Assembly: GCA_964623735.1 (NCBI GenBank)
Contig: CAZUVE010000001.1
Location: 1 to 54,274, forward strand
DNA length: 54,274 nt
Direction: 5' to 3'
Source: an uncultured Halobacteriales archaeon
GTDB lineage: Archaea; Halobacteriota; Halobacteria; Halobacteriales; Haloarculaceae
Part shown: in pieces, positions 19,227 to 35,875 of the stretch
Layout of the letters: the number at the start of each line of letters is the position of its first letter
Position numbering within the stretch: position 1 is the stretch's first letter
The notes under the pieces: generated by a model
Seen by the model: the letters and a program-made list of their open reading frames with translations, nothing else
Databases searched by the model: none
What the model was told of the DNA's origin: nothing
Program-made: the position numbers and the translations under genes

Positions 19227-19304
19227 CGACAGCCGGGTGTACCACGCGGGGACGCCCGGCGGCGAACGGCTCGCATATAAGTGGGCGCCGGCGTTACCGG
19301 GGGT

Positions 19305-19517: not shown

Positions 19518-19541
19518 CTGAGTGGGTCCGGAATTCACCCC

Positions 19542-20243
19542 ATGGCCGAGGACGTCAAGCCGACGCGCAAGAACCTCATGCACATCGAGGAGCGCATCGA
19601 GCTCTCAGAGCGGGGCCACGACACCCTCGAAAAGAAGCGCGACGGCCTCATCATGGAGTTCATGGACATCCTGGACCAGGCCAGGGACGTCCGGGAGGAC
19701 CTGGAAGCCAGCTACGACCGCGCCCAGCGCAGCATGGACATGGCGCGGGCGATGGAGGGCGACGTCGCGGTCCGCGGGGCCGCCGCGGCACTCAAGGACC
19801 ATCCCGAACTCACCACGCAGTCGAAAAACATCATGGGCGTCGTCGTCCCGCAGATCGAGTCCTCGAAGGTCAGGAAAGACCTGGACGAGCGAGGGTACGG
19901 TGTGCTCGGGACGAGTGCGCGCATCGACGAGGCCGCCGGGGCCTACGAGGACCTGCTCGAGAAAATCATCCTCGCGGCGGAGGTCGAGACCGCGATGAAG
20001 AAGCTCCTGGACGAGATCGAGACCACAAAGCGCCGCGTCAACGCCCTCGAGTTCAAGCTCCTGCCCGAACTGCACGACAACAAGGAGTACATCGAGCAGA
20101 AACTCGAGGAACAGGAGCGCGAGGAGATCTTCCGCATGAAGAAGATCAAGGACATGTTAGATTCCGAGACAAGTGAATGGGCTGAAGAAGAGGAAGAGAA
20201 AGAGAGAGAGGAAGAAGAGATAGCTGTCGGTGCTGACGACTGA
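19542..20243 (+). CDS. atpD: A-type (V-type) ATP synthase subunit D, with its last ~29 codons supplied by the integrated element
   Basis: PTRKNLM...LERRVNALE-type coiled-coil pattern ([16 protein letters not shown]) and [11 protein letters not shown]. Codon usage switches to A/T-ending codons after 20156. Confidence 0.95.
20142..20156 (+). repeat. attL core (15-bp direct repeat AAGATCAAGGACATG)
   Basis: An identical 15-mer occurs at 35272..35286, and both are in the atpD reading frame (KIKDM). Confidence 0.8.
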
Positions 20244-20519
20244 TTCACTGATATTCCTTCTCGAAACCGAATTGGGCCGTGTGGCCCCTGGTTTGCACCA
20301 GGTCGCGGCACCTCCGGATCAGTAAGACTGACCAAGGCTTCTTGAACCTGGTGCAGTCTTGAGCGGTAGAGCTCACATCCCTGACCCAGTCCAGTCTGGA
20401 ACCACAGGAGTTCACGAACTGACGCCTATAATAACCTATACCGTTCAGTTCGCGAACTTGATTCCCGGCTACTACCGTATCGATCTCGGTGGCGAATCCA
20501 CCAGCTCGGATGCATTCTC

Positions 20520-21400
20520 CGGGTAGTGCAGCGGCGTCGTCAAGATCCTCACAAACGTCCTCATCGACCTGGTCCGGACTGACCTGCCTACCCGCGACCC
20601 CCCGGCCGCCCAGGGCAGGAGAAACCTTGGCCGGCCTTGTGCGGCCGCGGTTTCCCCGCCGGGAGAGACCTGATCCCCCACTTGGGGATGGACCTGGGGG
20701 GCGGACCTGACGCGCGCGTCAAGCCTGACCTCGGGTCTGCGCGCCCGCGGTGACACCTCGCACGAATCGTAACGTCGGAGGTATCATTCCGGTCTGCAGA
20801 ACGCGAGGATTCCCTACGAGGTGGGGGTGTGGACTTCCTCATCATCGATGAGAGTGCATCGGTGCCGGAACGTGCTTGGACAGAGGAACTCCACCCAACG
20901 CTGTCCGATTCCCAGGGCAAGATGATTGCCATCGGCACACCTAAGAGCCGAAACTGGTTCCATCGCTGGTTCAAACGTGGCCAGTCCACCGATTATACTG
21001 GTCGACGGAGTCCCTGATAGATATTCGCCGGGTCGTGACGCGGCGAATTGTCTCAACCGTTCCGTCGACCAGTATACCCCGAGGTTACGAGCTTCCAGGC
21101 CCCTACATATCAGAATCCGCATATCGCCGACTCGGAGATTGATTCCGCCCGCGACGACATGCCGGACCGTGTATTTGAACAGGAGTATCTGGCGAAGTTC
21201 GTCGATGATGCCAGTGGCGTCTTCCGGAACGTTCGTGAGCGGAATGTCGAGTCGTATACCCTGTCCGTGAGTGCCGCCGAGAGTACTGGTCCCTATTCAA
21301 TCGGTGTCGACTTCGCCCGGGTGGAAGGCACGCTGGATTCGCGTCGGTGGTTAGCTGCGCTATTCGGGTTCAGAGGAGTTCGACACTCTCTCCCCTGAGA
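20520..21400 (+). pseudogene. phage terminase large subunit, multiply frameshifted and truncated
   Basis: The fragments are ALCGRGFPAGR (decayed Walker A), VSFRSAEREDSLRGGGVDFLIIDESASVP (Walker B), MIAIGTPKSRNWFHRWF, then in another frame FQAPTYQNPHI...FEQEYLAKFVDDASGVF...YSIGVDFAR. Confidence 0.65.
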
Positions 21401-21636
21401 ACGCTGCTGACTTCCGATCACGACCCGATCCAACTACGCATTGTCGGCTTCCTGCGTCATTGTCTCACCACTTCAGACAGAATCTCACCCTGCCAGAGAG
21501 AAGTTAGCCTAGAACGGATGAGGATAGGGGGTGTCCGGTCGATTGATTCTCGCACATTCAAGCAACCGTGGGTCGGTGTGCTTGACCTCTGAGAACTCCC
21601 GGGAACAGTGTACCCGGCGATGTTTCGGTTGTGCTC

Positions 21637-21716
21637 ATACTGTCGGTTATAACTACGTGAAGATATTCTGCACCCCGGAGTGCCGACAGTGCTCACGCGC
21701 TTATAGCCGACAGTAT
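21637..21716 (+). repeat. family-A repeat
   Basis: ATACTGTCGGTTATAACTACGTGAAGATATTCTGCACCCCGGAGTGCCGACAGTGCTCACGCGCTTATAGCCGACAGTAT. Confidence 0.85.
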
Positions 21717-22084
21717 CAGTAGTCGCAAGGTTGCGGTGGATTCATTCTACGAATAGCTGAATTAACTGACGTGATATCCGTTGAAATTTACTGCACGGAT
21801 GCGGGTTCTGGATGAGAAAGAGATATTATAGCAGACGGACTGGAAGCGACCTGTTCGAAGTCTGAGAACGCCGTTGAGGTGAAATTGGATATACAATCGG
21901 TCGATAGTCGCATGATGAGAGAAACTATCATAATGCTGGCCAACATGCACAAATATATCACACATAGTATCATGGAAAAGCGTACAGTCAACGTGATATT
22001 GGACACGTCGCTCGCCGAACCACGCTCATCCTCGAATGGTACAAGTACGATCACGTGATACGTGTCAACCGGAGGGACGAATAA

Positions 22085-23041
22085 ATGAGTACACGTAGTG
22101 GGCCACTCGCTTCGACGAGGTCCGCCACCCTAGCTCAGCGCCTGCGGCCAATCTTGGAGACACTGTTCGATTGGCTCACGCTTGAGCCCATCTGGCGGGC
22201 GTACCGCCGTGCGGGGACCAGAGGAGCCGTTGCGGTGGCGGTCGGGCTATGGTTTATCTGGCTGATGATCGTGTCCGTGCCGCTGGCCGTCGTCGGCGGG
22301 TTGCTCGAATTAGCCGGTGTCGTTCAGAGTGCCGGTGATGCCATTGTGGCACCGGTGGTTTTATTGGCAACTGCAATTACATTATACGGCGCGTACAACG
22401 CCTACCGGTTCATCGACGATCGGGGGACGGTGTACGAGTACCGCCAGAATCTCGATACACAGAAGGCCGGCGACTGTTTCGACTATCTAGATTCGGGGGA
22501 TGCCGTCACACGCGGGATTGCCTCGGCGGCCATCGCCGATGCGATGGGACAGATTGACGACGTAGACCCAGTATTGAAACAGGCCGGGTTGGACAAGGAA
22601 GCGGTTGCATTCAAACTGGTCGATCTATTCCATGATGATAACGATGACGTACGGCGCAACGCCAGCGAGGCAGTCGCATACTTATCTCGTGACTACCCGC
22701 TGACCATCGCCCCGTACCGCGACGATGTCTTTGCGGCCATGACCTACCCCGACTCGGTGATTCAGACGAACGCAGCCATCGTCGGGGGAAACATGGCTGC
22801 TATCGAGCCCCGATTGTCTGATGAAGTCGTCGACAATCTCGAGCCGCTCATCGCTGATGAGGACCCAGAGGTCCGGCAGGGGATGGCGATGGCACTAAGC
22901 CTGATTCACACAGACCGGGCCCGGAAGCTGTTAGAACAGCTCGCCAGCGACTCCAACGCCGATGTCCGCAACACGGCGACCGAGGCCCGCGAACAGCAGG
23001 AGCAAGGACGCCCCCTTGACATTGACGTCGAATCCGCATGA
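22085..23041 (+). CDS. membrane-anchored HEAT-repeat protein (paralog 1)
   Basis: Two N-terminal helices (AVAVAVGLWFIWLMIVSVPLAVVGG, VAPVVLLATAITLYGAY). HEAT/PBS-lyase-like repeats follow (DDNDDVRRNASEAVAYLSRDYP, DEDPEVRQGMAMALS, SDSNADVRNTATEA). Confidence 0.75.
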   Translation: MSTRSGPLASTRSATLAQRLRPILETLFDWLTLEPIWRAYRRAGTRGAVAVAVGLWFIWLMIVSVPLAVVGGLLELAGVVQSAGDAIVAPVVLLATAITLYGAYNAYRFIDDRGTVYEYRQNLDTQKAGDCFDYLDSGDAVTRGIASAAIADAMGQIDDVDPVLKQAGLDKEAVAFKLVDLFHDDNDDVRRNASEAVAYLSRDYPLTIAPYRDDVFAAMTYPDSVIQTNAAIVGGNMAAIEPRLSDEVVDNLEPLIADEDPEVRQGMAMALSLIHTDRARKLLEQLASDSNADVRNTATEAREQQEQGRPLDIDVESA

Positions 23042-23122
23042 GGTTGATGTTCAGACATCACACCCAACCAACCGGTCGGTTGCATCGTGCGCTAAGTAGT
23101 TGCGCCGCCACTCAACCCAGTC

Positions 23123-23983
23123 ATGGATGAGCGTATCGCCCGGCTGGCCGCCGTCGAAAGCGACACCGGTCGGGGCCGTGCCACCGACATCCTCATCGAC
23201 ATCGTCAAAGAGGCCCGCGACCAGGTCGGTGTTGCTGGAATCGCAGTGTCAGTTGCGGTGTTGTATTTCGGCTCGTACTTTCTGTTGGCAGCCATGTTCG
23301 GCGTGGCCAGCAGCGTCATCGGCGAGACGGTGGGACTTCTCGCCGGACTGGTTGCACTTGCATACACGAGTTGGGTAGGGTTCACCGCCTACGAGGAATC
23401 GACTGACAGAGAGCGAGCCCGCATCATCCAGTCCCGGCCATCGATCGACACCATCGAGGAAGCGTTCGACCTGCTGACGAGTCCGGACCCGGAGGCTCGT
23501 GAGCACGCGGCCGCATGCGTCCGTGAGGTCACCGCCCTCGGGCCACAGAAGGTGATCTCGATATTGGGCGCCTCTGCAGAGGACGTGGTGTCGTATCTTA
23601 TTCCGCGACTGGATTCCGACCAGGAAGCCGTCCGGGCGAGCATCGCCAGCGCCATCGCGTTCTTCGCTCGTGACTACCCGGCAGCGGTTGTCCCACACCG
23701 GGAGACACTGCTGTCGCGGGTCACTGCCGACGGCATCAGCCCAGAGGTCCGGGGGGAACTCGCGATGACCGTTGGGTACCTCTCGCTGACCCGCGGCGGC
23801 GAGACCGAGACACTCGAGGAGGTCGGATTCGAACTCGCCGATCACTCCACTCCTCAGGTGCGAATCGGGGCCTGCTACATGCTGGCGGGCGCCCAGACCG
23901 ATAGAGCGCGGGAACGGATCCGCAAGATTGCCGAGGACGACCCTGATACGGAGGTGCGAAACCATGCTGAGGAGCTGTACTGA
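23123..23983 (+). CDS. membrane-anchored HEAT-repeat protein (paralog 2)
   Basis: Same architecture as paralog 1, and shares the ARDYP and TDRAR...DDPDTEVRNHA blocks with 22085..23041. Confidence 0.75.
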   Translation: MDERIARLAAVESDTGRGRATDILIDIVKEARDQVGVAGIAVSVAVLYFGSYFLLAAMFGVASSVIGETVGLLAGLVALAYTSWVGFTAYEESTDRERARIIQSRPSIDTIEEAFDLLTSPDPEAREHAAACVREVTALGPQKVISILGASAEDVVSYLIPRLDSDQEAVRASIASAIAFFARDYPAAVVPHRETLLSRVTADGISPEVRGELAMTVGYLSLTRGGETETLEEVGFELADHSTPQVRIGACYMLAGAQTDRARERIRKIAEDDPDTEVRNHAEELY

Positions 23984-24022
23984 CCACACGCAGTGTTCCG
24001 AGAGGCCCGAGGAGGTGACAAA

Positions 24023-25330
24023 ATGAGCACTGCCGGGGAGTTCTCGTCACCGAACGTCGAAGCCAAAGACTACTACGAGCGGCTCGGGGTCCCTGAGGAC
24101 GCCAGCGCTGAGGACGTCGCCAACCACACCAAAAAATACGTCGCGCAATTCAAACCGGAGCTGTCGGACCACGACAACGCCGACGAACGGTGGGATCGGT
24201 TCAACGACGCTCGCCAAACGCTCAACGGGGCCGAGACCAAAGAGGAGTACGACACGTTTCGTGAGCGGTTCGGGCCACAGGATGGGGCCGAGGCGTACGA
24301 GGCCTGGGAGGCCCGTGACAGACCTGGGGACCCGGCGACACTTGACCCTGCCCGCCAACTCGACCGGCCGTCGATCGGTAAAGAGGGTACTGCCACCTCC
24401 GATGAGGAGCCGGCCGAGAGCCAGACATCCAGCAGACAGAGTGATGACCGCCAGCAGCGCCGGTCCCGAGAGCGCACACGGCAGACGTCCGAGGCCGAAC
24501 GCGAGCGCCGCCGCAGAGAGCGCCAGCGGCGTCGTCGCGAAGCCGACATCGACCTCGACTCCTCGAAGGCCCACTCGACCCGTAACGTCGACAGGGACGA
24601 TGAGGAAGACGACGAGGCCACCGAGGAACCGGCCAGCCAGTCGACGGCACGGCAGGTGCTCAGCCACTTCCGGGAGTCCGGCCGGGTCGCGACGCGCGAG
24701 GCCGCGACCGCTCTCGAGGTGCTGGAACTGGCGGTCGTCGGCTACATCATATACGCCCTCATCGTCCAGTTCGGCGCAGCCAGCGTGGCCGACGCGGCCG
24801 GAACCGTCATCGTCCAAGACATCGCGACTGTCGGCGTGGTTCTCGGCGTCGGGTTCGTCCTCGTCAGCCGGTATCTTCAGCGGTTCGGGACTGATCCGGC
24901 CAACCCAGACGGTCGGCCGTCGCCGGGCCGGCAACTTATTCGCGACAGCGACACCCCGACGTGGTTCGTGTACGGCCCGGCAGTCGCTGGTGTACTGTTC
25001 GCCGGTCTGCTCCCGCTGGGCGGGGGCGGTACGACGCTGTTGTTCGTCGGACTGGCAATGCTGTTCACATACGGACGGTACCGGGTGGTGGCCGAACTGG
25101 TACCCACGCCGGACTGGAGCGAGTACGTCGACATCGCCGGTGGAGCCGGCGCCGCAGTACTGTTCATCGCTATCTTTGTGCTGTCGGCGCCCGGCGCAGG
25201 GGTTGAGGCAGATGTCGCGACCTCCGGGCCGGCGGTCGCCATTGTCGTGGTTGCGCTCATAGCCGCCATCGTTGCCATCCCATCGGTCGCTCTCTGGTTG
25301 GGCGCTCGGGAGGAGGCCGAGGCCGCTTGA
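24023..25330 (+). CDS. polytopic membrane protein with N-terminal J-like domain (HPD replaced by KPE)
   Basis: DYYERLGVPEDASAEDV...KKYVAQFKPELSDHDNADERWDRFNDARQTL...EYD aligns with J-domain helices I-IV. An R/E/D-rich linker and about 5 C-terminal helices follow. GGAGGTGA lies 5 nt upstream of ATG 24023. Confidence 0.75.
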   Translation: MSTAGEFSSPNVEAKDYYERLGVPEDASAEDVANHTKKYVAQFKPELSDHDNADERWDRFNDARQTLNGAETKEEYDTFRERFGPQDGAEAYEAWEARDRPGDPATLDPARQLDRPSIGKEGTATSDEEPAESQTSSRQSDDRQQRRSRERTRQTSEAERERRRRERQRRRREADIDLDSSKAHSTRNVDRDDEEDDEATEEPASQSTARQVLSHFRESGRVATREAATALEVLELAVVGYIIYALIVQFGAASVADAAGTVIVQDIATVGVVLGVGFVLVSRYLQRFGTDPANPDGRPSPGRQLIRDSDTPTWFVYGPAVAGVLFAGLLPLGGGGTTLLFVGLAMLFTYGRYRVVAELVPTPDWSEYVDIAGGAGAAVLFIAIFVLSAPGAGVEADVATSGPAVAIVVVALIAAIVAIPSVALWLGAREEAEAA

Positions 25331-25439
25331 GAGTCTGCCCATCCAGAGGACCAGAGACTCTACTGGCACAACAGTTAATCTAACCAATACCGTATGAAAT
25401 AAAAAATGCCGGACCGGAAATCGTCACGGACGAAACGGA

Positions 25440-25790
25440 ACGTGCCTGCAGGGAATCACCCAACTCGAGGCCTCCTACGACGAAGGGCTAGCCGACGCCA
25501 TCGTCGCTGGGGCGACACAGGAGATCCTCATGCGGCCGGGGGACAACGAATCACTCGAGCATATCCAGCAGGCGATCGGCTCTACTATCATCGAACATGA
25601 AGAGGAAGCCCCGGGGTTCGGTCAGCGCAACGTCAAACAGGAGGAACAGGACTACCTTTCGGATCGCGAGATCCGTCAGTTCCAGACCGGTGAGGCAATC
25701 GTCCGATCGCCGGACGGGTTCGCTCACGGCCGAGTCAAGCCCTGGGAGCATCTCTCCAGCCGCGAGAAAGCCAAACTCACCGGTGACTGA
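25440..25790 (+). pseudogene. C-terminal remnant of a TraD/VirD4-like (type IV coupling protein) gene
   Basis: LQGITQLEASYDEGLADAIVAGATQEILMRPGDNESLEHIQQAIG...DYLSDREIRQFQTGEAIVRSPDG matches the conserved C-terminal blocks of coupling ATPases. No N-terminal ATPase part is present. Confidence 0.55.
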
Positions 25791-25862
25791 CCATCGCATG
25801 ACAGACACTCATCGTGGGCCGACACACCGACACCGGACTGAGAACCACCATCAGCAACACCA

Positions 25863-27224
25863 ATGACATCGGGTACCGACGACCCGGACGACGACGGACC
25901 GAGCAACAATCAATCGGACCGCGCCTCAGAGGACCAGCCCGAGGTTGACCGAGCCGATAGCGCCGAGACAGAGGGGGCGACCGATTCCGATGCCGAGGCG
26001 GCGGACGCTCTGGACGACATCGACGGTCCTCCGGAGTCCAAGACGACAGCCGCAGAACAGGCAGGCTCAGCCGATGATCACCCGACCGACGCGGCCGAGC
26101 AGACGCCCGCCGAGGCGGATATGACAGAGGACATGAGAGAGGCCGAGGCTGCCGAGGAGCCGGCCGCCGAGGCCGACACCGACAGCACGAGCGACGCCGA
26201 AGCCACGGACCCCGAATCTGAGTCTGAGCCCAGCGCTGACTCCGAGGTCACAGCGGTCGACAGTCAGGACACCGAGAGCGGGTCGGGCGAGAAGACCAGC
26301 GCGAGCGATGACGACGCCTCCTCAGTCGATGCTGACGCTGCTGAGGAGGGCGACGGAAAAGAGGAGCCGGCCACAGAGGCCGATACCGACGACGAGGGAA
26401 CCGGCGCCGACCACCGGTCCGAGACGGCGAAGACCGAGGAGCCGGATGCTGCCGATGACGGCGGTGACGACACGATGGCCGGTCGTGACCCGGCGGATCT
26501 AACGCCGGACGAGGTGGAGGTCACTCGTCCCGACGAGTTCGAGTTCAGGTACCTCCCCAAAGACCGCCTCCCTCCGGATCTCCAGTACACCCCGGAGTTC
26601 GATCCCGACTGGGTGTACCCATCCGGAACAAAAGACGGTGGCACGCAGGACGACGTCCCAGTCCAAGGCCTCGAGACCGGCGTGTTGGCAACCGAGGATA
26701 CCCTCGAAGCGATCGTTGAGGCCGTCCTCGAGGCGCTCGAACTGTATCACGACGCTGTCGGAGAGTATCCACGCCACCGCATCGTCGACTCCGCGGCCAC
26801 GTTCCGCGACCTGAACGACGGGAGCGTCGGGCTTGCAGTCGTCTTCCAGCCTCGGCCGGACGACTACGACGGCCTCACAGACCATATGACTGCGCTGACA
26901 GCGGGTGATTCCGGAGCCGTCGACGGGAACTACGACCGAGCCCGCCGCCTCGTACAGTACCTCGTCGGATCGCTCACACACCGTGAACTGGCGGCGCTGC
27001 CGGGCGCAGAGGATGTGGAACTGGAGGCGGTCACCGACTGGGAATCGCCACGACGGGTCGGCACCACCCCCATCGTCGAGCGATACGGCCCGTTGGCTGC
27101 AGAGGAGGTGTACGACCCGACAGCGGGACCGGTCGATATCTCCACCGATGGGGTCGCCAGCGTGACGGAGACCAATATTTCGCCGACGTATCTCGATATC
27201 AACCATGTGGAGGAACTGTTCTGA
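25863..27224 (+). CDS. protein with ~200-aa extremely acidic low-complexity N-terminus and a ~250-aa globular C-terminal domain of unknown family
   Basis: 453-aa ORF. The D/E/A/T-rich region spans about 25863..26470. The C-terminal part has normal composition, and I recognised no motifs in it. Confidence 0.65.
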   Translation: MTSGTDDPDDDGPSNNQSDRASEDQPEVDRADSAETEGATDSDAEAADALDDIDGPPESKTTAAEQAGSADDHPTDAAEQTPAEADMTEDMREAEAAEEPAAEADTDSTSDAEATDPESESEPSADSEVTAVDSQDTESGSGEKTSASDDDASSVDADAAEEGDGKEEPATEADTDDEGTGADHRSETAKTEEPDAADDGGDDTMAGRDPADLTPDEVEVTRPDEFEFRYLPKDRLPPDLQYTPEFDPDWVYPSGTKDGGTQDDVPVQGLETGVLATEDTLEAIVEAVLEALELYHDAVGEYPRHRIVDSAATFRDLNDGSVGLAVVFQPRPDDYDGLTDHMTALTAGDSGAVDGNYDRARRLVQYLVGSLTHRELAALPGAEDVELEAVTDWESPRRVGTTPIVERYGPLAAEEVYDPTAGPVDISTDGVASVTETNISPTYLDINHVEELF

Positions 27225-27305
27225 TCCGCCCCGCCGGACGTCACCACCTGAGGGTCGCCGTCCGGACCCGTGGCAGCGGTCGCCAGCAGCATCGGCACAG
27301 GAACT

Positions 27306-28058
27306 ATGTCTGTCGCCACGGTGGTCCGACCCATGACTGACGACGGCGAGCGGTTCGTCCGGCTCAGCAACCGGGCCAGGGACGGCGAACCGGTCGACGA
27401 AGGGGACATCCGAGCTGTGTTTGACGCTGTCTTAACGGAAGATATGGGGGCCGCTAGAGCGCTGCAGACCATCGCCGAAAACGATCCCGACCGGTTGGCG
27501 GCGTACACCGACGACATCCAGGCGGCGTTCGAGGCGTGTTCGGACGGCACCGTCCGAAGCAATCTGTATACGGTGCTCAAAGAGGTCAGCGCTGTCCGGC
27601 CGACCCTCCCGTTCGAGGTGGCCGACGAACTAGTCAGAACAATCCGTCAGGGCGACCCGCTGCTGGCCGCCGAGGCGATTGCAGCGCTGACGGCGTCGGT
27701 CAAGGCAGGCCAGACCCTCCCGGAGGAGTTCGTCCAAGAGGTGTTCTACCGAGTGGGGCGGTCACCGAACGACTACGTGATGTCCGTCGGCGGGGAGTTC
27801 CTTCGGACGGTCGTCGAAGCCGGTGGTGACAACGCGGTCCCAGCATTCGAGGCGTTCGGCGTCCTCCTCGCGGAAGACCAGTCCGATATGACGATCGTGC
27901 TGGGGCAGGTGCTCGTGGACCTGCTGTTGGAGTCGCCCGAGGCAGTGCCAGCAGACGCCGACACGGACGTGGTGCGGGAGGCACTGGCTCAGCGGCGTGA
28001 GGAAACCGGACTCCCGGACGACGAACTGACGACGGCACTCGAGACGCTCGAGGCGTGA
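27306..28058 (+). CDS. soluble all-helical HEAT/ARM-like repeat protein
   Basis: AENDPDRLAAYTDDIQAAF...DGTVRSNLYTVLKEV...GDPLLAAEAIAALTASV helical-repeat periodicity. The stop overlaps the next start (GTGA at 28055-28058). The start could instead be GTG 27270. Confidence 0.6.
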   Translation: MSVATVVRPMTDDGERFVRLSNRARDGEPVDEGDIRAVFDAVLTEDMGAARALQTIAENDPDRLAAYTDDIQAAFEACSDGTVRSNLYTVLKEVSAVRPTLPFEVADELVRTIRQGDPLLAAEAIAALTASVKAGQTLPEEFVQEVFYRVGRSPNDYVMSVGGEFLRTVVEAGGDNAVPAFEAFGVLLAEDQSDMTIVLGQVLVDLLLESPEAVPADADTDVVREALAQRREETGLPDDELTTALETLEA

Positions 28059-28612
28059 CCACCTGTAGCTGTGGCACCGAACAGAAGGAAGTCGACCGCG
28101 AGAGCACGGTGCGACAGTACGTCGACCGGTTCAGTTTCTCGGACCTCTCGCTGAACAAGAAGACCGAGGTAAAGAACCCGTTCCGTCCGAGCGCGCTCTA
28201 CGAACTGGCTACAGCGCCGAATGCCCGGGCGGACATCGAGGGTCCCAGCCTCGAAATAGAGCGCTCCGAGGACACCTTCTGCCCGAACTTCGCCGAGCAT
28301 CAGGAGGCGTACGACCGACTCGTCGCCCAGGCGGAACTGATCGAGGCCGCGACCCAGAATGTACCCGCCGCGGAGGTCGAGACCGCAGTCGACGTCGAGA
28401 TGGTCCGCTCGAAGATCGAGCACCTCCCCTCGCAGGTGCCCAACCTCTCAGAGGCAGAGCTCGAACAGCTCCAAGACGAGCTGACCGCTATGCAGGCGTC
28501 GCTGTCGGGGCGGCTCGAACAACTCGAGGGCAGCCAACCGGCGACGCTCCGGGAGTCGCTCGGCGGGTCTAACCGAGCCCAGCGACTGATACTGTCGGCT
28601 ATAACTTCGTGA
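28055..28612 (+). CDS. module-1 ORF of the interrupted gene (terminates in MITE-derived ILSAITS*)
   Basis: TTCSCGTEQKEVDRESTVRQY...EDTFCPNFAEHQEAYDRLV...VDVEMVRSKIEHLPSQV...LTAMQASL...NRAQRL, followed by MITE sequence. Confidence 0.6.
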   Translation: MTTCSCGTEQKEVDRESTVRQYVDRFSFSDLSLNKKTEVKNPFRPSALYELATAPNARADIEGPSLEIERSEDTFCPNFAEHQEAYDRLVAQAELIEAATQNVPAAEVETAVDVEMVRSKIEHLPSQVPNLSEAELEQLQDELTAMQASLSGRLEQLEGSQPATLRESLGGSNRAQRLILSAITS

Positions 28613-28668
28613 AGATATTCGCCACCCCGGGGTGCCGACAGTGCTCACGCGCTTATAGCCGACAGTAT
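28589..28668 (+). mobile_element. family-A MITE-like insertion inside the coding sequence
   Basis: AT-ACTGTCGGCTATAACTTCGTGAAGATATTCGCCACCCCGGGGTGCCGACAGTGCTCACGCGCTTATAGCCGACAGT-AT. 28589..28666 is 78 nt (26 codons) with one in-frame TGA at 28610. Confidence 0.85.
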
Positions 28669-29452
28669 GAACAATCTGCAAGAGCAGACACAACGGATCC
28701 TGGACAACCATATCGCCGAGGAGATCGATCTCCGCCAGCAACAGGCCCGGCAGGACGCTCCCGCCAGTCCAGCGGAAGACACCGCACCGGATGGTTCGAA
28801 AGAACAGGTCGACGAGCAACCGACGGCGTCGCCGGCAGAACCGCCGCCGTGTGACACGTGTGGGCGGGAGGAGGTCCGCGTCGAGCGCCAGACCACGGTC
28901 CGACAGGTCCAGTCGGATCTGGAGTTCCGAAAGCTCAGTTTCGCAGGGTCGGTCACCCCCGGACTGTTCGACAACGAGGGGTCGCTTGACCCGAGTCTGG
29001 ATGGCGGCCCGAGCGTCGAGACGACCGCGACACTCAAGGGCAACGAGGACACGTTCTGCGGGAACTTCGCGGGTGACGAAGACGCCTACGAGGCACTCGT
29101 CCACGATATAAAGGCGACCGACAGGCTCGCCGACCGATACGGGCCGGGGGAGCATCTCGAGGACAACATCGACATCGAGATGCTCCGGTCGAAGGTCGAG
29201 CATCTCCGGACGCAGGTGCGAGACCTCTCGACCGAGAAGCTGACTACGCTCAAAGAAGAACTCACAGCGATGCAGGAGTCAGTGGCCGCCCGGGTCGGGG
29301 ACCTCCGGACCAATCAGCGGTGGGCGAAGCTCCGTGACGACCTCGGGGTCTCGTCGCGCATCCAGCGGCTCCGAGACCTGCAGACCCAGGCCCAGAAGTT
29401 CGTGGACAACCACATCACCACTGAACTCATACTGTCGGCTATAACTACGTGA
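28667..29452 (+). CDS. module-2 ORF of the interrupted gene
   Basis: The ATG lies at the MITE/flank junction. Sequence is PPCDTCGREEVRVERQTTVRQV...EDTFCGNFAGDEDAYEALV...IDIEMLRSKVEHLRTQV...LTAMQESV...SRIQRL...NHITTEL, followed by MITE-derived ILSAITT*. Confidence 0.6.
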   Translation: MNNLQEQTQRILDNHIAEEIDLRQQQARQDAPASPAEDTAPDGSKEQVDEQPTASPAEPPPCDTCGREEVRVERQTTVRQVQSDLEFRKLSFAGSVTPGLFDNEGSLDPSLDGGPSVETTATLKGNEDTFCGNFAGDEDAYEALVHDIKATDRLADRYGPGEHLEDNIDIEMLRSKVEHLRTQVRDLSTEKLTTLKEELTAMQESVAARVGDLRTNQRWAKLRDDLGVSSRIQRLRDLQTQAQKFVDNHITTELILSAITT

Positions 29453-29508
29453 AGATATTCCCCAGTCCGGGGTGTCGATACTGCTCACGCGCTTATAGCC
29501 GACAGTAT
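29429..29508 (+). mobile_element. family-A MITE-like insertion inside the coding sequence
   Basis: AT-ACTGTCGGCTATAACTACGTGAAGATATTCCCCAGTCCGGGGTGTCGATACTGCTCACGCGCTTATAGCCGACAGT-AT, with an in-frame TGA at 29450. Confidence 0.85.
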
Positions 29509-29698
29509 CAGCGAGCGCCAGCAGCAGGCACAGCGAGCCCCCGGCGATCAACGACCCGGCCAGGGCGGCACCGACCCCGAGACTAGCCCCACGGCAGTTC
29601 CCGATGAGACCGAACCGGGCCAGCAGGCCCAAGCCAGTCCGGACGCGACCGGGAAAACGGACCAGTCGCCGACCGACTGCGAGCGCTGCGAGGAGGAG

Positions 29699-30805
29699 AT
29701 GGCCCGCGTCCGCCGCGAGGGGCGTGTCCGGCAGTTCGCCGAAGAGATGGAGCTTCGAGAACTCAACGTCGGGGTCTCGGTGGATATCGTCACCCAATCG
29801 CCCACGCCGAAGGCGAACCCGAAGTTCGAGCGCCGGCCCGATCGGTTTTGCAAAAACTTCGACGGCGACGAGAATGCGCTGGATGCACTCAAGCATGACG
29901 TCCAGCGGGTCACCACCGTTGCTCGAAACAACGCAGGCGGGGAATTCGTCGAAGACGTCGTCGACGTCGAGATGGTCCGGTCGAAGCTGGAGACGTTGCC
30001 GGAGTCCGTCGAAGGGCTCTCCGAGCAGAATCTGAGAGACCTCCGAGGATCACTCGCCGAAATGCGCGACCGGCTGGCCGAGCGGATACAGGACCTCCGA
30101 GACAGTCAGCGACGGAAACTGGAGCAGTTACGGGAGAAGCTAAACCTCTCCTTGCGGCTCGAACGTCTCGAGAACCTGAAAGAGCAGGCCGTCGAGGTCA
30201 TCGACCAGCACCTCGATCCCGAACTGGACCGTCGCCAACAGCCGGGTACCAACTCCGACGACGATCCATCGAGCAGTCCGAGCAGCGGTGGGCCAGAGAC
30301 CGGACCCGACAGCAGGCCCAGTTCCGGCTCCGGTACTGAGTCGGGCTCAGACGGTGGCTCGGGTACCGGAAGCAGGAGTGGTAACGATGGGGCCAACGGT
30401 GGCACTGGGGCTACCGGGAGCGATGGAACTAGCGGCGCCAGCGGATCGAGCGGGAGCAGCGACAGTAGCGGTAGCGCCACGACTGACGATGGCACAGGCG
30501 CGGACGGAACGGACAGCGGGGGGACCGGCGAGGATACCGAGCCCGACGCCGATGAGAGCGGTGACGGCTGGGGGACCGGTGAGCAGGACGGCACCCCCGA
30601 CGGTGCGGACTCCGAGCCCGACCGTGACGTCGATGACGAACCCGGCAACGACCGGTCTGAAAAGGAAGAACGAGACCGACGAGGCGAACCCGACGAAGAG
30701 GGTCCCGACGAGGACGAGGACGAGAACGAGCGCGAAGCCGAAGAACCTCATCAGGACGACGAACCCGAGGCGGACACCGAACCAGATCACGGCCCGATGT
30801 TATAA
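29699..30805 (+). CDS. module-3 ORF plus long G/S/D/E-rich tail (first ATG lies after the module's CxxC)
   Basis: The frame is open from 29453 (…ISERQQQ…TDCERCEEEMARVRREGRVRQF…), but no ATG/GTG/TTG precedes 29699. Downstream are RFCKNFDGDENALDAL, VDVEMVRSKLETLPESV and LAEMRDRL. Confidence 0.55.
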   Translation: MARVRREGRVRQFAEEMELRELNVGVSVDIVTQSPTPKANPKFERRPDRFCKNFDGDENALDALKHDVQRVTTVARNNAGGEFVEDVVDVEMVRSKLETLPESVEGLSEQNLRDLRGSLAEMRDRLAERIQDLRDSQRRKLEQLREKLNLSLRLERLENLKEQAVEVIDQHLDPELDRRQQPGTNSDDDPSSSPSSGGPETGPDSRPSSGSGTESGSDGGSGTGSRSGNDGANGGTGATGSDGTSGASGSSGSSDSSGSATTDDGTGADGTDSGGTGEDTEPDADESGDGWGTGEQDGTPDGADSEPDRDVDDEPGNDRSEKEERDRRGEPDEEGPDEDEDENEREAEEPHQDDEPEADTEPDHGPML

Positions 30806-30963
30806 GCAGTCGTATGCTCCTGCCGACGAGAAGCGCCGGGAGTCCGTCACTATGACGCGTCGTTGTTCCCGCCGCCGGTCCGTCACCACCGACTGTGGAT
30901 GCCACACTCGGAGGTGGCCAGAGCCGCTACGACGACACAACAGCGTGGTCGTTCCGATACGGG

Positions 30964-32511
30964 TCAGGCGTCCGGCGGGAGTTGTGCATCGGGGTCGCTG
31001 CCCTCCAGTGCGGACTCGATCTCCGCGGTGACCTCTATCCCGCTCAACATGTCCTCGCCATACACCGCTAGAGTGCCGTCGTTGTTGACCGTGAACTCGA
31101 CGGCAAGCGACCCCTGTCCGGGCTCGCGAGGGTCGATCCCCTCCAAAGTGGCCTGGCCGAGGAACTCGTTGTCAGGGGCCTTGTCTGACTCACCCTGGTA
31201 CACTTCGATGGCGACGGTCGTCTGGTTCGGGTCCGCGACGCTGTAGCCCTCCTGTCGCTCGGTGGTCGGCAGTTGAGTGTCGCGTTCGACGATAGGGTCG
31301 AACCGGTCGCCGGGCTGGACCTTGACCCCGATCGACTGCGGGAGAACGTCGATCAGCACCAGGCCCGCCTCCTCGGTCGATTCACCGCTCGGTAGCGCCG
31401 CCTCATCGGCTTCGTCGTCGAGCACGGCCGCCTGGATGGCCGCGCCCATCGCGACCGCGTGGTCGGGACTAATCTCCTTGGAGGGCTCCATCCCGAAGTA
31501 ATCGGTAACCAGTTCTTCGACCTGTGGCATCCGCGTCGACCCCCCGATGAGCAGTACCTTGTCGATGTCCTCGACCGCGTAGTCCGTCCGGTCGAAGATG
31601 TCGTCCATCGGATCGGTGGTTCGGTCAAGGAGGTCCGCCGTCATGTCCTCGAACTGGGCGCGGGTGACCTCCTCGTCGAGGTTGTACGACTGCTCGGGCA
31701 GGACGAACGGCACCGTGAGATTCACCGACTGCTGCTCTGAGAGCTTGTGCTTGGCCTCCTGAGCGGCTTCGAAGATCCGGCCCCGCTGGTCGGCGTAGTC
31801 GGGGTCATCGCTGATGTCGACGCCGGTATCCTCCTCGATGCTGTCGTATGCGAACTGTACGATCGCCTCGGTCCAGTTCGATCCACCGAGTTCGTTGTCG
31901 CCGTCGGTCGCGACCGTCTCGATATAGTTGAACTCGTACTCGGCCTCGACCAGCGTTGCGTCGAACGTGCCCCCGCCGAGGTCGTACACGAACACTATCT
32001 CGTTGTTCACCTCGCCCAGTTGCTGCTCGCGGAATCCGTAGGCCAGCACTGCCGCGCTGGGTTCGGGAAGCAACTTCTCTACGTTCATGCCGGCAAGTTC
32101 GCCGGCCTCTCGAGTGGCGGTCCGTTCCCGATCGGTGAAATACGCCGGCACGGTGATGACCGCGTTGGTAACGTCGGTGCCCAGTCGGTCCTCGGCGTCG
32201 CCCACTAGCTTCTGGAGAATAAGCCCGGACACCTCTTGTGGAGTAAATTCCTCGTCCCCCATCATGACGGTCTCGTTGGTCCCCATGAGCTTCTTGACCT
32301 CCCGAACCGTCCAGTCGGGTTTCATCATCATGTTGTTTACCGCACTCTCTCCCACCAGCGACTCACCTTCCTCGGTCAGATGCACGACCGAGGGGGTGAT
32401 GCCTTTGCCATCGCTGTTATCGATGACGGTCGGCTCCCCGTCGGTGATGTGCGCCATCGCACTGCGAGTCGTCCCAAGGTCTATGCCAATCGTACGCTCG
32501 CCGTTTGACAT
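30964..32511 (-). CDS. Hsp70-family ATPase, lid-less (paralog A)
   Basis: MSNGERTIGIDLGTTRS, VITVPAYFTDRERTATREAGELAGM, EPSAAVLAYG, YDLGGGTFDAT and LIGGSTRMPQV, with a beta-sandwich SBD (IDVLPQSIGV...). The protein ends about 60 aa after SBD-beta, so there is no helical lid and no EEVD. Start trimmed to ATG 32511. Confidence 0.9.
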   Translation of the reverse strand: MSNGERTIGIDLGTTRSAMAHITDGEPTVIDNSDGKGITPSVVHLTEEGESLVGESAVNNMMMKPDWTVREVKKLMGTNETVMMGDEEFTPQEVSGLILQKLVGDAEDRLGTDVTNAVITVPAYFTDRERTATREAGELAGMNVEKLLPEPSAAVLAYGFREQQLGEVNNEIVFVYDLGGGTFDATLVEAEYEFNYIETVATDGDNELGGSNWTEAIVQFAYDSIEEDTGVDISDDPDYADQRGRIFEAAQEAKHKLSEQQSVNLTVPFVLPEQSYNLDEEVTRAQFEDMTADLLDRTTDPMDDIFDRTDYAVEDIDKVLLIGGSTRMPQVEELVTDYFGMEPSKEISPDHAVAMGAAIQAAVLDDEADEAALPSGESTEEAGLVLIDVLPQSIGVKVQPGDRFDPIVERDTQLPTTERQEGYSVADPNQTTVAIEVYQGESDKAPDNEFLGQATLEGIDPREPGQGSLAVEFTVNNDGTLAVYGEDMLSGIEVTAEIESALEGSDPDAQLPPDA

Positions 32512-32593
32512 CAAGATAATACACAGCGGCAGCCACATTAAATCTTGACACCGCGCTGACGTTGCCGAACATCTTATTTTCGTCGCCTTCACA
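32512..32593. promoter_or_regulatory. 82-bp divergent intergenic region of the two Hsp70 genes
   Basis: Relatively AT-rich (TTAAAT, CTTATTTT as TATA-box candidates). A 7-bp inverted repeat TCAAGAT(32511-17)/ATCTTGA(32542-48) is present. Confidence 0.4.
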
Positions 32594-34180
32594 ATGGCAG
32601 ATATGTCGCCAGCGGACGGCACGACCGTCGGCATTGATTTGGGAACGACCAGAACGGCGGTTGCTCATGTGACGAGGGGCACACCGACGTTGCTCGCGAA
32701 TGCCGGGGGGTACAACCTGACGCCCTCTGTCGTGCACGTCCCCCGTGACGGGCCAGCACTCGTCGGCCGTGAAGCCAGCGACCGGCTGCTGATGGAGCCA
32801 GAGCGGACCATCGCGGAGGTCAAACGCCATATGGGCGATGAGACCGAACTGAGTCTTGGACAGTCGACACGCCGCCCTGAGGAACTATCGGCGCTAATAC
32901 TCGAGAAGGTCGTCAACGATGCCGCCGACCGGACCGACACCACTGTCGAGACGGCAGTCATCACCGTACCGGCGTACTTTACCGGACGGCAGCGGACGGC
33001 GACCCGTAACGCGGGTGAGATTGCGGGTCTTCACGTCGATCAGTTGCTACCCGAGCCCAGCGCGGCGGTGCTGGCCTACGGGTACGAACAGCAGAAGCTC
33101 GGGGAGGTTACCGACGAGACGCTGCTGGTGTACGACCTCGGCGGAGGAACGTTCGACGCGACGCTCGTCGAGGCCGAATACGAGCATAACTACATCGAGA
33201 CGGTGTTCACCGAGGGGGACAGCGGGCTCGGCGGGCACGACTGGACGGCCGAGATCGAGGCGTGGGTGGCCGACGAGATCCGTTCCGACACCGGGATCGA
33301 CGTCACCAGTGGGTCGGCCTACGCCGACCAGCGCAACCGCATCCGGTCGGCTGCTCGTGAGGCCAAACACGAACTCGTCGACCAGCAAAAGACCGTGGTA
33401 AATATTCCGTACGTCGTCCCAGAGGAAAACTACCACTTCGAACGCACGATTGATCGGGCACAGTTCCAAGCGATGACCGAGCACCTGCTCGAACAAACCC
33501 GCAAGACCATCGAGACCGTGTTCCACCAGACGGACTACACCACCGCCGACGTCGACACGGTCCTGCTGGTCGGAGGCGCCTCCCGGATGCCACAAGTGGA
33601 GTCGATGCTCCGGTCGTACTTCGGGATGGCACCCTCCAGAGAGGTCCACCCCGACCACGCCGTCGCGATGGGCGCAGCCGTCCAGGCAGCTGTCCTTGAC
33701 GACAGCGTGACCGGCGTCGGCGAGATGCTGTCACATGCCGAGGACGACGGCGCCGGCGCGCCGAGCGGCATCGTCCTCGTGGACGTGCTCCCCCAGACGC
33801 TCGGGGTGGAATTGGACAACGGGCAATTCTCACCGGTCATCGAGCAGGGCGCTCAACTGCCGACGACTGTCCGCAAGGAAAATTTCCAGACGGTACACCC
33901 TGACCAGACCGCGGTCAAGTGGCCGATCCGCCAAGGCGAATCGCCACAGGCCGTCGACAACGACCTCCTCGGGACGGTCTGGATCCGTGACATCCCCCCG
34001 CGAGACCCGGACCGCGATAGCATCGCCGTCGAGTTCACCATGACCTCCGACGGCACGTTGCAGGTAGAGGTCGAAGACCTGATCACGGGCAGGCTGGTCG
34101 ACGCGACGATCGAGTCCGGCATCCGACTCTCCGATGCCGAGATCACGGAAATGAGCGCTGACATCCCAGGGGTGGAGTGA
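32594..34180 (+). CDS. Hsp70-family ATPase, lid-less (paralog B)
   Basis: TVGIDLGTTRT, VITVPAYFTGRQRTATRNAGEIAGL, EPSAAVLAYG, YDLGGGTFDAT, LVGGASRMPQV and VDVLPQTLGV. It ends shortly after SBD-beta. Confidence 0.9.
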   Translation: MADMSPADGTTVGIDLGTTRTAVAHVTRGTPTLLANAGGYNLTPSVVHVPRDGPALVGREASDRLLMEPERTIAEVKRHMGDETELSLGQSTRRPEELSALILEKVVNDAADRTDTTVETAVITVPAYFTGRQRTATRNAGEIAGLHVDQLLPEPSAAVLAYGYEQQKLGEVTDETLLVYDLGGGTFDATLVEAEYEHNYIETVFTEGDSGLGGHDWTAEIEAWVADEIRSDTGIDVTSGSAYADQRNRIRSAAREAKHELVDQQKTVVNIPYVVPEENYHFERTIDRAQFQAMTEHLLEQTRKTIETVFHQTDYTTADVDTVLLVGGASRMPQVESMLRSYFGMAPSREVHPDHAVAMGAAVQAAVLDDSVTGVGEMLSHAEDDGAGAPSGIVLVDVLPQTLGVELDNGQFSPVIEQGAQLPTTVRKENFQTVHPDQTAVKWPIRQGESPQAVDNDLLGTVWIRDIPPRDPDRDSIAVEFTMTSDGTLQVEVEDLITGRLVDATIESGIRLSDAEITEMSADIPGVE

Positions 34181-34417
34181 CGGCCTCTGTCGAGCTGGTA
34201 TCGGATCTGACCGGGGAGTCGCCGGTAGGTTGGGTAGCCAGGCCGTTGCAGCGACAGAGACGCTGCTTGCCTCTGTCAGTGCAGTTTCGACTGTGACTGT
34301 GGCCGTCTGCTGGGTCAAGCCACCGGCTTGAACACGCACACCGACCACTCTGCGACTCGCTGGACGCGAGAGTTTGCCGAACCGTTCGCAGGCCGGAAAA
34401 CCGCGGCACACGCGCGG

Positions 34418-34657
34418 CTACCGGTCGCACGTCTCACTGAACTCCGCCCGGAGGTATGGCTCCTCTGCCCGGGGTCGTAGCGACACCCATCCCACATGAA
34501 CTGCGGCGAGCGCGGCGAGGAACGCTGACTCGGCTTCCTCGGCGCGAACAGTGACAGAGCGTTCAAGACCGCCGAGATCGCCCGGCAGACGGACCCCGAC
34601 AGCGGGAGCGTGAGTACGGCCCTCTCCCGGTTGGAGCACCGTGACCTCGTGGAACAC
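34418..34657 (-). CDS. hypothetical 79-aa ORF (weak)
   Basis: Composition is reasonable, but I recognised no motif. It may be a gene fragment. Confidence 0.2.
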   Translation of the reverse strand: MFHEVTVLQPGEGRTHAPAVGVRLPGDLGGLERSVTVRAEEAESAFLAALAAVHVGWVSLRPRAEEPYLRAEFSETCDR

Positions 34658-34671
34658 AAGGCTGTCTACTG

Positions 34672-34750
34672 ATACTGTCGGCTATAAGCGCGTGAGCACT
34701 GTCGGCACCCCGGGTGGAGAATATCTTCACGTACTTATAGCCGACAGTAT
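34672..34750 (-). repeat. family-A repeat (reverse orientation)
   Basis: ATACTGTCGGCTATAAGCGCGTGAGCACTGTCGGCACCCCGGGTGGAGAATATCTTCACGTACTTATAGCCGACAGTAT. Confidence 0.85.
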
Positions 34751-34888
34751 GAGCAATCACCGAGGACGACGAGCGGTTGCAGTCGTACGACGACTACAGT
34801 CGTGCGACGGCGCTGTTCAACGACCAGCTCGGCACGGAGGACGGCAGCGAGTGGGCGAAACACGCACCCGAGTCAGCAGGAGGACGAG

Positions 34889-35017
34889 CATCCGGCTTTC
34901 GAACCCGGTGATGTCGTCTTCGGTGCTGGTCCGTTCAAGAGTGCGATCGCTGCCCGGCCGTGGTTGGTCGTCTCGAACGATGTTCCACTTGGAACTGTAG
35001 CACAATTCTTGCTTTGA
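34889..35017 (+). pseudogene. N-terminal fragment of a PemK/MazF-family toxin
   Basis: FEPGDVVFGAGPFKSAIAARPWLVVSNDVP matches the haloarchaeal MazF N-terminus. There is no start codon, and the fragment is truncated at about 34995. Confidence 0.5.
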
Positions 35018-35214
35018 AGAGAAAAAACCGTTCCTGGCACTTCTTTATCAAAGGCGTCCAACAGTTGATAAATCGCGTCAGCGTCGCGTTCCGAGACATC
35101 ACCCCTAAGATTCGGTGGACCGGTTCCACTCTGCTCTGGATCCCCACCAGTCACTTTTTTCAGCCGTTCGCGTGCAGATTCGTACATGCCCCGAGGATCA
35201 TCTCGATGTGGCAT
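35000..35214 (-). pseudogene. N-terminal fragment of a tyrosine-recombinase-type integrase (haloarchaeal provirus type)
   Basis: MPHRDDPRGMYESARERLKKV...GDVSERDADAIYQLLDAFDKE resembles the N-terminal SAM-like region of haloviral integrases. Codons are AT-richer. It lies about 55 bp inside attR, and the catalytic domain is absent. Confidence 0.4.
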
Positions 35215-35271
35215 AGTCAATTTCCGGCTCCGTTGCTTTTATTTCTTAGAACGGAAACTGTACGACAATAA

Positions 35272-35286
35272 AAGATCAAGGACATG
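35272..35286 (+). repeat. attR core (AAGATCAAGGACATG)
   Basis: Identical to 20142..20156. Confidence 0.8.
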
Positions 35287-35370
35287 ATGGAAGAACAGGA
35301 GAACGAGTGGGAGCAGGCCGAAAGCGACGATGAAGAAGCCGAAGAGGAACCGCTCGCGGCCGACGACTGA
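35287..35370 (+). other. displaced native 3' end of atpD (27 codons + stop)
   Basis: Read in frame from the repeat it gives (KIKDM)MEEQENEWEQAESDDEEAEEEPLAADD*, parallel to the atpD tail (KIKDM)[28 protein letters not shown]. Codons are GC3-rich like the atpD body. Confidence 0.7.
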
Positions 35371-35857: not shown

Positions 35858-35875
35858 TACGGACTGCTGTAAGTC

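Follow-up and report, generated by a model that had tools for sequence, protein, structure and literature searches.

In Escherichia coli K-12, the icd gene reads into the integrated element e14 (and likewise into phage 21), and the far junction is marked by a C-terminal pseudogene, icdC (PMC13626634, citing Hill et al. 1989). For archaea, proviruses with their chromosomal attachment site (attB) in protein-coding genes are on record, namely BJ1 in the gene for HMG-CoA reductase, Msmi-Pro1 and NitGar-E6 (PMC8371274, section 19), and entries classed as 'Intragenic' appear among the integration sites of tailed haloviruses (PMC8651126, Table S7); recombination at such archaeal sites is described in the section cited as experimentally untried (PMC8371274). 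In haloarchaea, moreover, the SNJ2-type integrase and its cognate attachment (att) site constitute a module that is common to otherwise unrelated elements (PMC5861418). Here, we analyze a stretch of 54,274 nucleotides (contig CAZUVE010000001.1 of assembly GCA_964623735.1, forward strand) from an uncultured archaeon of the family Haloarculaceae, order Halobacteriales, referred to as the window in the following, in which atpD, the gene for subunit D of the A-type ATP synthase, is followed by an island of 15.1 kb and, at the far end of that island, by a second atpD tail. The island is very probably a decayed, at least partly virus-derived element that integrated site-specifically into the 3' end of atpD and supplied this gene with a replacement tail. 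An initial annotation of the stretch, made from the sequence alone, had called the use of a protein-coding gene as the target unusual. It is indeed uncommon in archaea, and the principle as such is already documented in the parts of the literature cited above (PMC8371274, PMC8651126); what is new is the target gene atpD, for which full-text literature searches returned no report of use as an att site.

The open reading frame (ORF) of atpD (19542-20243, + strand) encodes a protein of 233 residues, of which residues 11-204 match PF01813 with an E value of 4e-59. Close to its end lies the 15-mer AAGATCAAGGACATG (20142-20156, + strand), and exactly one more copy, identical in 15 of 15 nucleotides and also on the + strand, occurs in the whole window, at 35272-35286. 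Both copies encode KIKDM, equivalent to AtpD residues 201-205, and the core is therefore located where the conserved domain ends. Behind the left-hand copy, the attL core, the frame stays open through a tail of 28 residues up to the stop codon that ends at 20243 (tail and stop codon, 20157-20243, + strand). Behind the right-hand copy, the attR core, the same frame continues as MEEQENEWEQAESDDEEAEEEPLAADD to a stop codon ending at 35370, which yields a stranded tail of 27 codons plus stop that lacks a start codon (35287-35370, + strand). The G+C content at third codon positions (GC3) amounts to 0.92 in the body of atpD, 0.39 in the left-hand tail and 0.70 in the right-hand tail. Both tails are strongly acidic (net charge about -13 and -15), contain the dipeptide EW and terminate in ADD. 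The 15-bp repeat in the KIKDM frame at both island ends, the A/T-ending codons of the left-hand tail and the GC3-rich continuation of the same frame behind the right-hand copy had all been pointed out in the initial annotation, which was accurate on each of these counts. Further copies of AAGATCAAGGACATG with at most one mismatch were found neither in the window nor in 100 shuffled versions of it, and a search allowing up to three mismatches returned two unrelated sites only, so that no internal att site or partial tail was detected within the island.

With regard to this anatomy, and within the limits of an analogy, the closest mechanistic counterpart is the e14/icd/icdC system. According to the passages of PMC13626634 that deal with it, e14 likewise integrates in the 3' end of an essential metabolic gene, provides an element-encoded replacement C-terminus, leaves the native fragment stranded and is a cryptic prophage that also measures about 15.1 kb. 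On the other hand, e14 is bacterial and targets icd, whereas the element in the window is archaeal and targets the gene for subunit D of the A-type ATP synthase. Furthermore, the same passages describe the surrogate end carried by e14 as near-identical to the native one (two substitutions) and e14 itself as still capable of excision, whereas in the window only 15 bp match, the 28-residue tail is different and the island has lost its integrase. The archaeal intragenic proviruses are similar in that tyrosine-integrase elements make use of a protein gene instead of a tRNA gene; among the targets and cores listed in the passages concerned (PMC8371274, PMC8651126), none corresponds to atpD or AAGATCAAGGACATG, and a surrogate C-terminus is not mentioned there.

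Relatives that lack the island provided the empty site. In a scan with one genome per species, we collected 80 haloarchaeal atpD loci from GTDB, and the atpD stop codon could be located in 76 of them. In the closest loci (L001, L003 and L004), AtpD ends with KIKDM[ML]EE[QK]EAEW...PLAADD and thus resembles the right-hand tail of the window. At the DNA level, the loci of related species (L001, L003, L004 and L005) align to the window up to position 20156 and resume at 35272, from where the alignment runs on into a gene for a DUF6276 protein (35450-35857, + strand; PF19792, E 2.5e-47). This gene is located 0-400 bp from the atpD stop codon in 48 of the 76 loci, which identifies the adjacency of atpD and DUF6276 as ancestral and the DUF6276 gene as the original immediate downstream neighbor of atpD. 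A protein search retrieved three proteins (P0003, P0004 and P0005) in which an AtpD body identical or nearly identical to that of the window carries the tail MMEEQES[EQ]WEQA[EG]SDDEEAEEEPL[AT]ADD. In the corresponding four metagenome contigs (L081, L085, L086 and L087), atpD, the right-hand tail and the DUF6276 gene are contiguous. Their identity to the window amounts to 95-98% in atpD (97-98.7% of nucleotides in the body of the gene) and to 92-97% in the right flank. Alignments of these four contigs end at window position 20156 and begin again at 35272, with an overlap of exactly 15 bp in the contig, which is the relationship expected for attB, attL and attR. The cores of these empty alleles differ from that of the window by one or two synonymous bases, and the stranded tail of the window, which is free of frameshifts and premature stops, is identical to their intact tails in 80-81 of 84 nucleotides. 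The order predicted in the initial annotation for an unoccupied site, i.e., KIKDM-MEEQE[SN]EW...[AT]ADD with its stop codon and then directly the sequence found from 35371 onward, is present in L081 and L085-L087 as well as in L001 and L003-L005. It is thus the right-hand and not the left-hand tail that the closest island-free relatives carry, and segment 35287-35370 is clearly similar to atpD C-termini of other genomes.

Empty and occupied alleles coexist among near-identical strains, as exemplified by L087 (empty) and L082 (occupied, see below). None of the 80 GTDB loci contained a second tail or a related integrase within 10 kb, and no stranded tail was found in the 11 loci where a gap of 0.4-4.2 kb separates atpD and DUF6276. 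One contig of a metagenome-assembled genome of a related species, stemming from another assembly (L002, 10601-10615), ends with the last base of AAGATCAAGGACATG, and the contigs of L012 and L078 end no more than about 20 bp upstream of the core; such breaks in the assemblies would fit a junction at atpD that varies from strain to strain.

The left-hand tail recurs in another assembly. Contig L082 encodes an AtpD (P0002) that is 97% identical to that of the window and carries a left-hand-type tail of 26 residues; its DNA matches window positions 19432-20264 at 95.6%, and the tail differs by an in-frame indel of 6 nt. Similarity fades about 35 nt after the stop codon, and the interior beyond this point is unrelated. 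The shared stretch behind the stop codon (20244-20280, + strand) is probably the P' arm of the attachment site of the element, attP. The interior of L082 opens with an ORF starting MSRESQQASAASSTDIPAILNTCAPRDDVVDGELTDEKFAADLGDVVYG (1018-1166) that is unlike anything in the island of the window and has no match in Pfam, which shows that a different cargo follows the same attL.

As for the source of this tail, it shares GATTCCGAGACAAGT/GAGACAAG with L084, with the attL side of a further contig, L088, and with the native tail of L083. In the latter, more distant lineage, a tail of the D[AS]ETSEW type (KIKDKKDAETSEW...) is native and the DUF6276 gene follows directly; the relevant codons read GAT GCC GAG ACA AGC GAG TGG in L083 and GAT TCC GAG ACA AGT GAA TGG in the surrogate tail of the window. 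Together with its low GC3, this resemblance shows the left-hand tail to be foreign, namely an atpD 3' end captured from another host lineage that has drifted to A/T-ending codons since its capture. The native occurrence of the KIKDKKDAETSEW-type tail in L083 leaves the integration model standing and points to the source of the tail carried by the element. L084, in which GC3 is 0.45 in the atpD tail as opposed to 0.93 in the body and in which DUF6276 is absent from the 576 bp downstream, is probably another occupied site on a contig too short to show the junction.

At a distance of 57 nt inside the right-hand repeat, an ORF starts at 35214 on the - strand and points inward. Searches with this ORF in Pfam, PHROGs, NCBIfam, a word-indexed protein collection and, by tblastn, plasmids gave no match, and PDB returned nothing useful. 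An exhaustive phmmer search, however, retrieved six short relatives (P0122-P0126 and P0130) that align to window positions 35023-35214; their E values range between 7e-4 and 2e-9, and five do not exceed 3e-7. When compared with the window by tblastn, P0125 and P0131 yielded E values of 5e-12 and 9e-10, respectively. On its own, P0125 matches just phrog_1, at E 0.02. In contig L152, an ORF that begins as P0131 runs past a single in-frame TAA into a catalytic domain. The conceptual product matches PF00589 (Phage_integrase; E 2.7e-17, 63.5 bits at a cutoff of 27.1) and phrog_1 (E 1.4e-30), and the motifs TGQRIRA, HPHIFRHYF and TTYRH, i.e., the R...HxxR...Y signature, are readable. The homology to P0131 and its continuation into the Phage_integrase domain of L152 identify the ORF in the window as the first ~64 residues of a tyrosine integrase (35023-35214, - strand). 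An inward-pointing, integrase-like N-terminal fragment about 55 bp inside the right repeat had been proposed initially, and it is the homology to L152 that now confirms it, at 57 nt. Other pieces of an L152-type integrase, including the catalytic domain, were not found in the window: the similarity stops where a MazF fragment starts on the opposite strand, and the recombinase gene adjoining the att site is represented by the 64-residue remnant only. The integrase N-terminal motif was also encountered in a single metagenome protein, P0124 (residues 168-235), where it follows a VTT/DedA membrane domain as an in-frame fusion; either an error of gene calling or a different arrangement within the integrase family may account for it.

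L152 is informative beyond the protein it encodes. On the other strand, 58 nt upstream of the integrase ATG, AAGATCAAAGCGAAAAAAGAATCC... (AAGATCAAAGCG..., with AAGATCAA) encodes KIKAKKESGYREEREAEEDEDEQEIPA followed by a stop codon, and the intervening arm shares TTATTTCTTAG with window positions 35239-35249. A near-complete integrase thus lies beside its own AAGATCAA... atpD-type tail, and L152 may represent the attP of a relative. The 57 nt of the window that carry the common motif (35215-35271) correspond to the P arm of the former attP. A further, complete case is L088, a contig of 3.9 kb from another genus, on which the atpD 3' end, a surrogate tail (KIKAKKEAETREEREREQEAKEQVSAED and stop), 3.1 kb of cargo, an integrase remnant of 172 residues, a stranded native tail (...KKEAAERAEAEAVNEEREDTETVAADD and stop) and DUF6276 follow one another. 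The homology between its attL and attR starts at AAGATC and extends over about 25 bp, interrupted in attR by one mismatch and a deletion of 5 bp. In the window, in L088 and in L152, the homology starts at the identical base (AAGATC), and the integrase is spaced from the core by 57-58 nt in the window and L152 and by 26 nt in the decayed L088. Taken together, the layouts of L152 and L088 indicate a family of elements with the invariant KKIK codons of atpD as their target.

Among cultured relatives, the one nearest to the L152 integrase is gp36 of Halorubrum tailed virus 27 (HRTV-27, Hafunaviridae), with 33.5% identity over the full length and an E value of 5e-40. In the HRTV-27 genome (L153, MZ334522.1), the gene for gp35 (2109-2363) is oriented divergently from the integrase gene gp36 (2501-3847) at a distance of 137 bp, and gp35 corresponds to the last ~70 residues of a protein of the Peptidase_M3 family (match to positions 388-456 of the 457 in PF01432, E 2.8e-9). 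Just as in the elements at atpD, an integrase gene is thus divergent from the 3' fragment of a host gene, whereas sequence identity is only about 33%, gp36 has an additional zinc-ribbon C-terminus, and the fragment stems from a peptidase gene and not from atpD. The juxtaposition of gp36 and gp35 suggests that HRTV-27 integrates into a pepF-type gene and, by analogy, that it follows the same strategy at a different gene. We are slightly inclined to generalize this picture: a dedicated lineage of haloarchaeal tyrosine integrases may use the KKIK codons of atpD as attB in several genera (the species of the window, the host of L088 and the low-GC L152), each element carrying a captured acidic tail, and the wider clade including HRTV-27 may be specialized in the 3' ends of protein genes and not in tRNA genes. 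In that case, the ATP synthase of lysogens would work with a subunit D whose tail comes from a virus.

The following course of events very probably accounts for these observations. The element would originally have been a circular mobile DNA, at least in part derived from a tailed halovirus, with an attP consisting of the tyrosine-integrase gene, the 57-nt P arm and a captured atpD 3' end from codon K201 onward (AAGATCAA...) and extending further over the core, the surrogate tail and about 35 nt beyond. Recombination by the integrase would have taken place between this attP and the corresponding codons of atpD on the chromosome. The exchange must have been confined to the 15 bp common to both sites and most likely took place in AARATCAAR, which encodes the invariant K-I-K, because the homology starts at AAGATC in the window, L088 and L152 and ends where the tails diverge. 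On the attL side, atpD keeps its conserved domain (host residues 1-205) and reads into the acidic 28-residue tail of the element; on the attR side, the native 27-residue tail is left promoterless ahead of DUF6276. As the replacement tail maintains features of the native one, i.e., strong acidity, EW and the terminal ADD, the chimeric subunit D should remain functional. The site is flanked by an invariant recognition sequence on one side and, on the other, by a tail whose sequence and length differ freely among haloarchaea, which explains how a short foreign tail can restore the gene. Afterwards, in an order that is only presumed, the integrase lost all but its first ~64 codons, probably through a deletion, the terminase gene gained stop codons and palindromic repeats of the host type inserted; the interior now holds its cluster of Hsp70, J-domain and HEAT genes.

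Site-specific integration into a gene's 3' end by an element that restores the reading frame had been the central proposal of the initial annotation, and it gains strength from the empty sites, the homologous tail and the integrase relatives. The proposal that the island is now fixed holds in part: it is immobilized in this genome and incapable of self-excision, as the integrase is truncated, the terminase gene contains four stops, and the helix-turn-helix (HTH) and MazF genes are fragmentary, but it is not fixed, since L087 is empty and L082 is occupied.

Several observations weigh against site-specific integration of the island as described. All integrase copies found are defective (64 residues in the window, 172 residues in L088, an in-frame TAA in L152). 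Cultured phages, IMG/VR and JGI metagenome contigs yielded no free or circular attP of the element: IMG/VR and JGI metagenomes lacked the 21-nt tail pattern, cultured phages contained nothing that matched the junction DNA, and neither AtpD, used as a single protein and as a profile, nor the integrase N-terminal profile had a match in IMG/VR. Related elements, for which the initial annotation had suggested a search, were encountered in integrated form in L082 and L088. Moreover, the two sites have only 15 bp in common, and no convincing dyad symmetry could be made out around the core. The attR junction of the window lacks a second independent assembly, while attL has one in L082. Finally, the interior is without similarity to L082 beyond ~35 nt past the tail, so that the island may not go back in its full 15.1 kb to a single element.

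The last point leads to a refinement of the integration model that we consider evenly balanced with its opposite, namely that a small integrase/att module used the site and that the present interior arrived separately, through later insertions, through tandem integration followed by deletion, or through recombination between elements sharing the module. Besides L082, with its common core, tail and following ~35 nt, L088 contains the same module with just 3.1 kb of different cargo, and both favor modularity. It also fits that a single terminase fragment is all that is left of a virus in the window and that the pair of Hsp70 genes from the island recurs in KB651408.1 (L089), where the sequence differs from the window beyond the hsp70b stop. 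Integrase/att modules of the SNJ2 type are swapped between unrelated haloarchaeal elements (PMC5861418), and the window, L082 and L088 exhibit the same pattern of module sharing, although SNJ2-type systems target tRNA genes or intergenic sites, have the 3' end of int beside att and require Orf2 and Orf3 (PMC5861418), whereas it is the 5' end of int that faces att in the element of the window. A composite origin is at odds with the lack of any internal att copy or partial tail in the island and with an interior whose GC content is host-like throughout and shows no seams.

It is very unlikely that a circular DNA with an atpD fragment was integrated in the Campbell manner by homologous or microhomology recombination of the host, without a dedicated integrase. 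Haloarchaea recombine readily, the element does carry an atpD-derived segment, and an active integrase is not present now. Yet only 15 bp are identical, and homologous recombination is not to be expected over the rest of the tail, given its divergence. The homology begins at one and the same base in the window, L088 and L152, and the conserved distance of the integrase gene from the core in the window and L152, together with the P-arm motif common to these two, likewise speaks against it. A mis-join of the island between atpD and its tail during assembly is hardly credible: the window is probably one assembled metagenome contig, and in a different assembly the contig L002 stops precisely with the last base of the 15-mer, but 15 bp are shorter than the usual assembly k-mer, attL was seen independently in L082, and L088 displays the same two-junction anatomy on a single contig. 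Insertion of a transposon or casposon with a 15-bp target-site duplication and a left-hand tail arising by fortuitous read-through is already contradicted, for although casposons generate duplications of ~14-15 bp and show a preference for gene 3' ends, the island lacks terminal inverted repeats, Pfam detected no Cas1, PolB or transposase domain in the ten main genes and selected small ORFs and fragments of the end regions, and the left-hand tail is homologous to atpD tails and retained in L082 with an in-frame indel.

With atpD, a bioenergetic housekeeping gene joins the few protein-coding integration targets on record in archaea. The location of the site may explain why it is usable: on one side lies an invariant coding stretch that offers stable recognition across genera, and on the other a hypervariable acidic tail that can be exchanged at little cost. 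As attB, attL and attR are resolved to the base pair and a candidate integrase is at hand, the recombination reaction is directly testable. The junction of atpD and DUF6276 can furthermore serve as a marker for a variable island in hypersaline metagenomes.

The viral component of the island is a pseudogene for the large terminase subunit (20595-21392, + strand) that extends in one frame, contains four in-frame stops and is truncated at both ends. It matches phrog_2 (E 1e-8 and 4e-6) and PF03237 (Terminase_6N; 32.7 bits at a cutoff of 22) and is 39-44% identical to residues ~55-326 of ORFs of 405-471 residues with a terminase match in the IMG/VR contigs L090-L093. PHROGs searches with the other island ORFs returned no structural matches to portal, capsid or tail genes, and the truncated terminase stands alone. 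Besides this pseudogene, the relationship of the L152 integrase to that of HRTV-27 speaks for a viral origin. At the opposite end, an HTH-antitoxin/MazF-toxin remnant is located at 34529-34980 (+ strand), with the HTH part at ~34529-34662, the MazF part at ~34880-34980 and a palindromic repeat (34666-34752) in between; the HTH fragment matches HTH genes of haloarchaeal plasmids in blastn, and the MazF fragment matches PemK/MazF toxins at 58-62% identity in tblastn. Of the terminase, coupling-protein and MazF fragments initially reported from the interior, the first and the last are thus substantiated by profile and BLAST matches, while searches of both end regions of the island gave no evidence of a coupling-protein fragment.

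Between these remnants lies an unexplained gene cluster (22085-34180) with HEAT, J-domain, coiled-coil and Hsp70 genes, for which PADLOC gave no defense-system assignment. Two HEAT-repeat proteins (22085-23041 and 23123-23983, + strand; PF13646 HEAT_2, E 1e-12 for both, with weak HEAT matches in PADLOC) have hydrophobic, putatively transmembrane N-terminal stretches, and a J-domain protein (23993-25330, + strand; PF00226 DnaJ, residues 26-87, E 1.6e-7) has a hydrophobic, putatively membrane-embedded C-terminal region, as judged by eye from the translations in all three cases. They are followed by genes for an acidic protein of 453 residues (25863-27224, + strand) and a protein of 262 residues (27270-28058, + strand), neither of which had a match in Pfam, PHROGs, PADLOC or NCBIfam. 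Three related genes (28055-28612, 28667-29452 and 29699-30805, + strand), linked by the direct-repeat family D14, probably encode coiled-coil proteins, supported by sub-threshold matches to leucine-zipper and apolipoprotein families. The remaining two genes encode divergent Hsp70-like paralogues. The first (30964-32634, - strand; PF00012, E 2e-132; real start probably near 32508) reaches 460 bits with the NCBIfam DnaK model, below the cutoff of 648 bits, and the second (32594-34180, + strand; PF00012, E 1e-116) is 37% identical to plasmid-borne DnaK genes; neither reaches the NCBIfam DnaK cutoffs, their matches are confined to profile positions up to ~500, and their identity to DnaK is ~37%. 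An inverted repeat, I1, reflects 72% complementarity between the two Hsp70 genes, and the pair in KB651408.1 mentioned above is 85% identical at the nucleotide level.

The window also contains two families of palindromic intergenic repeats of ~80-90 bp with at least 20 copies, four of them inside the island. They are located to the left of the island (1885-1966, 7101-7244, 9594-9733, 11649-11747, 12780-12919, 13156-13424, 15610-16011 and 19133-19229), within it (21631-21716, 28583-28668, 29423-29508 and 34666-34752) and to its right (35370-35451, 35860-36031, 39737-39786 and 40167-40216). The last codons (...ILSAIT[ST] and stop) of the first two of the three related cargo genes (28583-28612 and 29423-29452) lie in such a repeat, which therefore supplies the C-termini and stop codons of both. 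No Rfam family matched the repeats; they look like miniature inverted-repeat transposable elements. Upstream of 19177, the window does not align with the empty-site contig L081. Copies of the palindromic repeats occur at 90-95% identity in L001, in more diverged form in L005 and L081, and at ~75% on a replicon of Haloarcula hispanica. A further family of repeats of ~100-115 bp, in direct and inverted orientation and 91-97% identical, is present upstream of atpD (18046-18143, 18732-18829, 11911-12026, 13214-13328 and 17988-18103).

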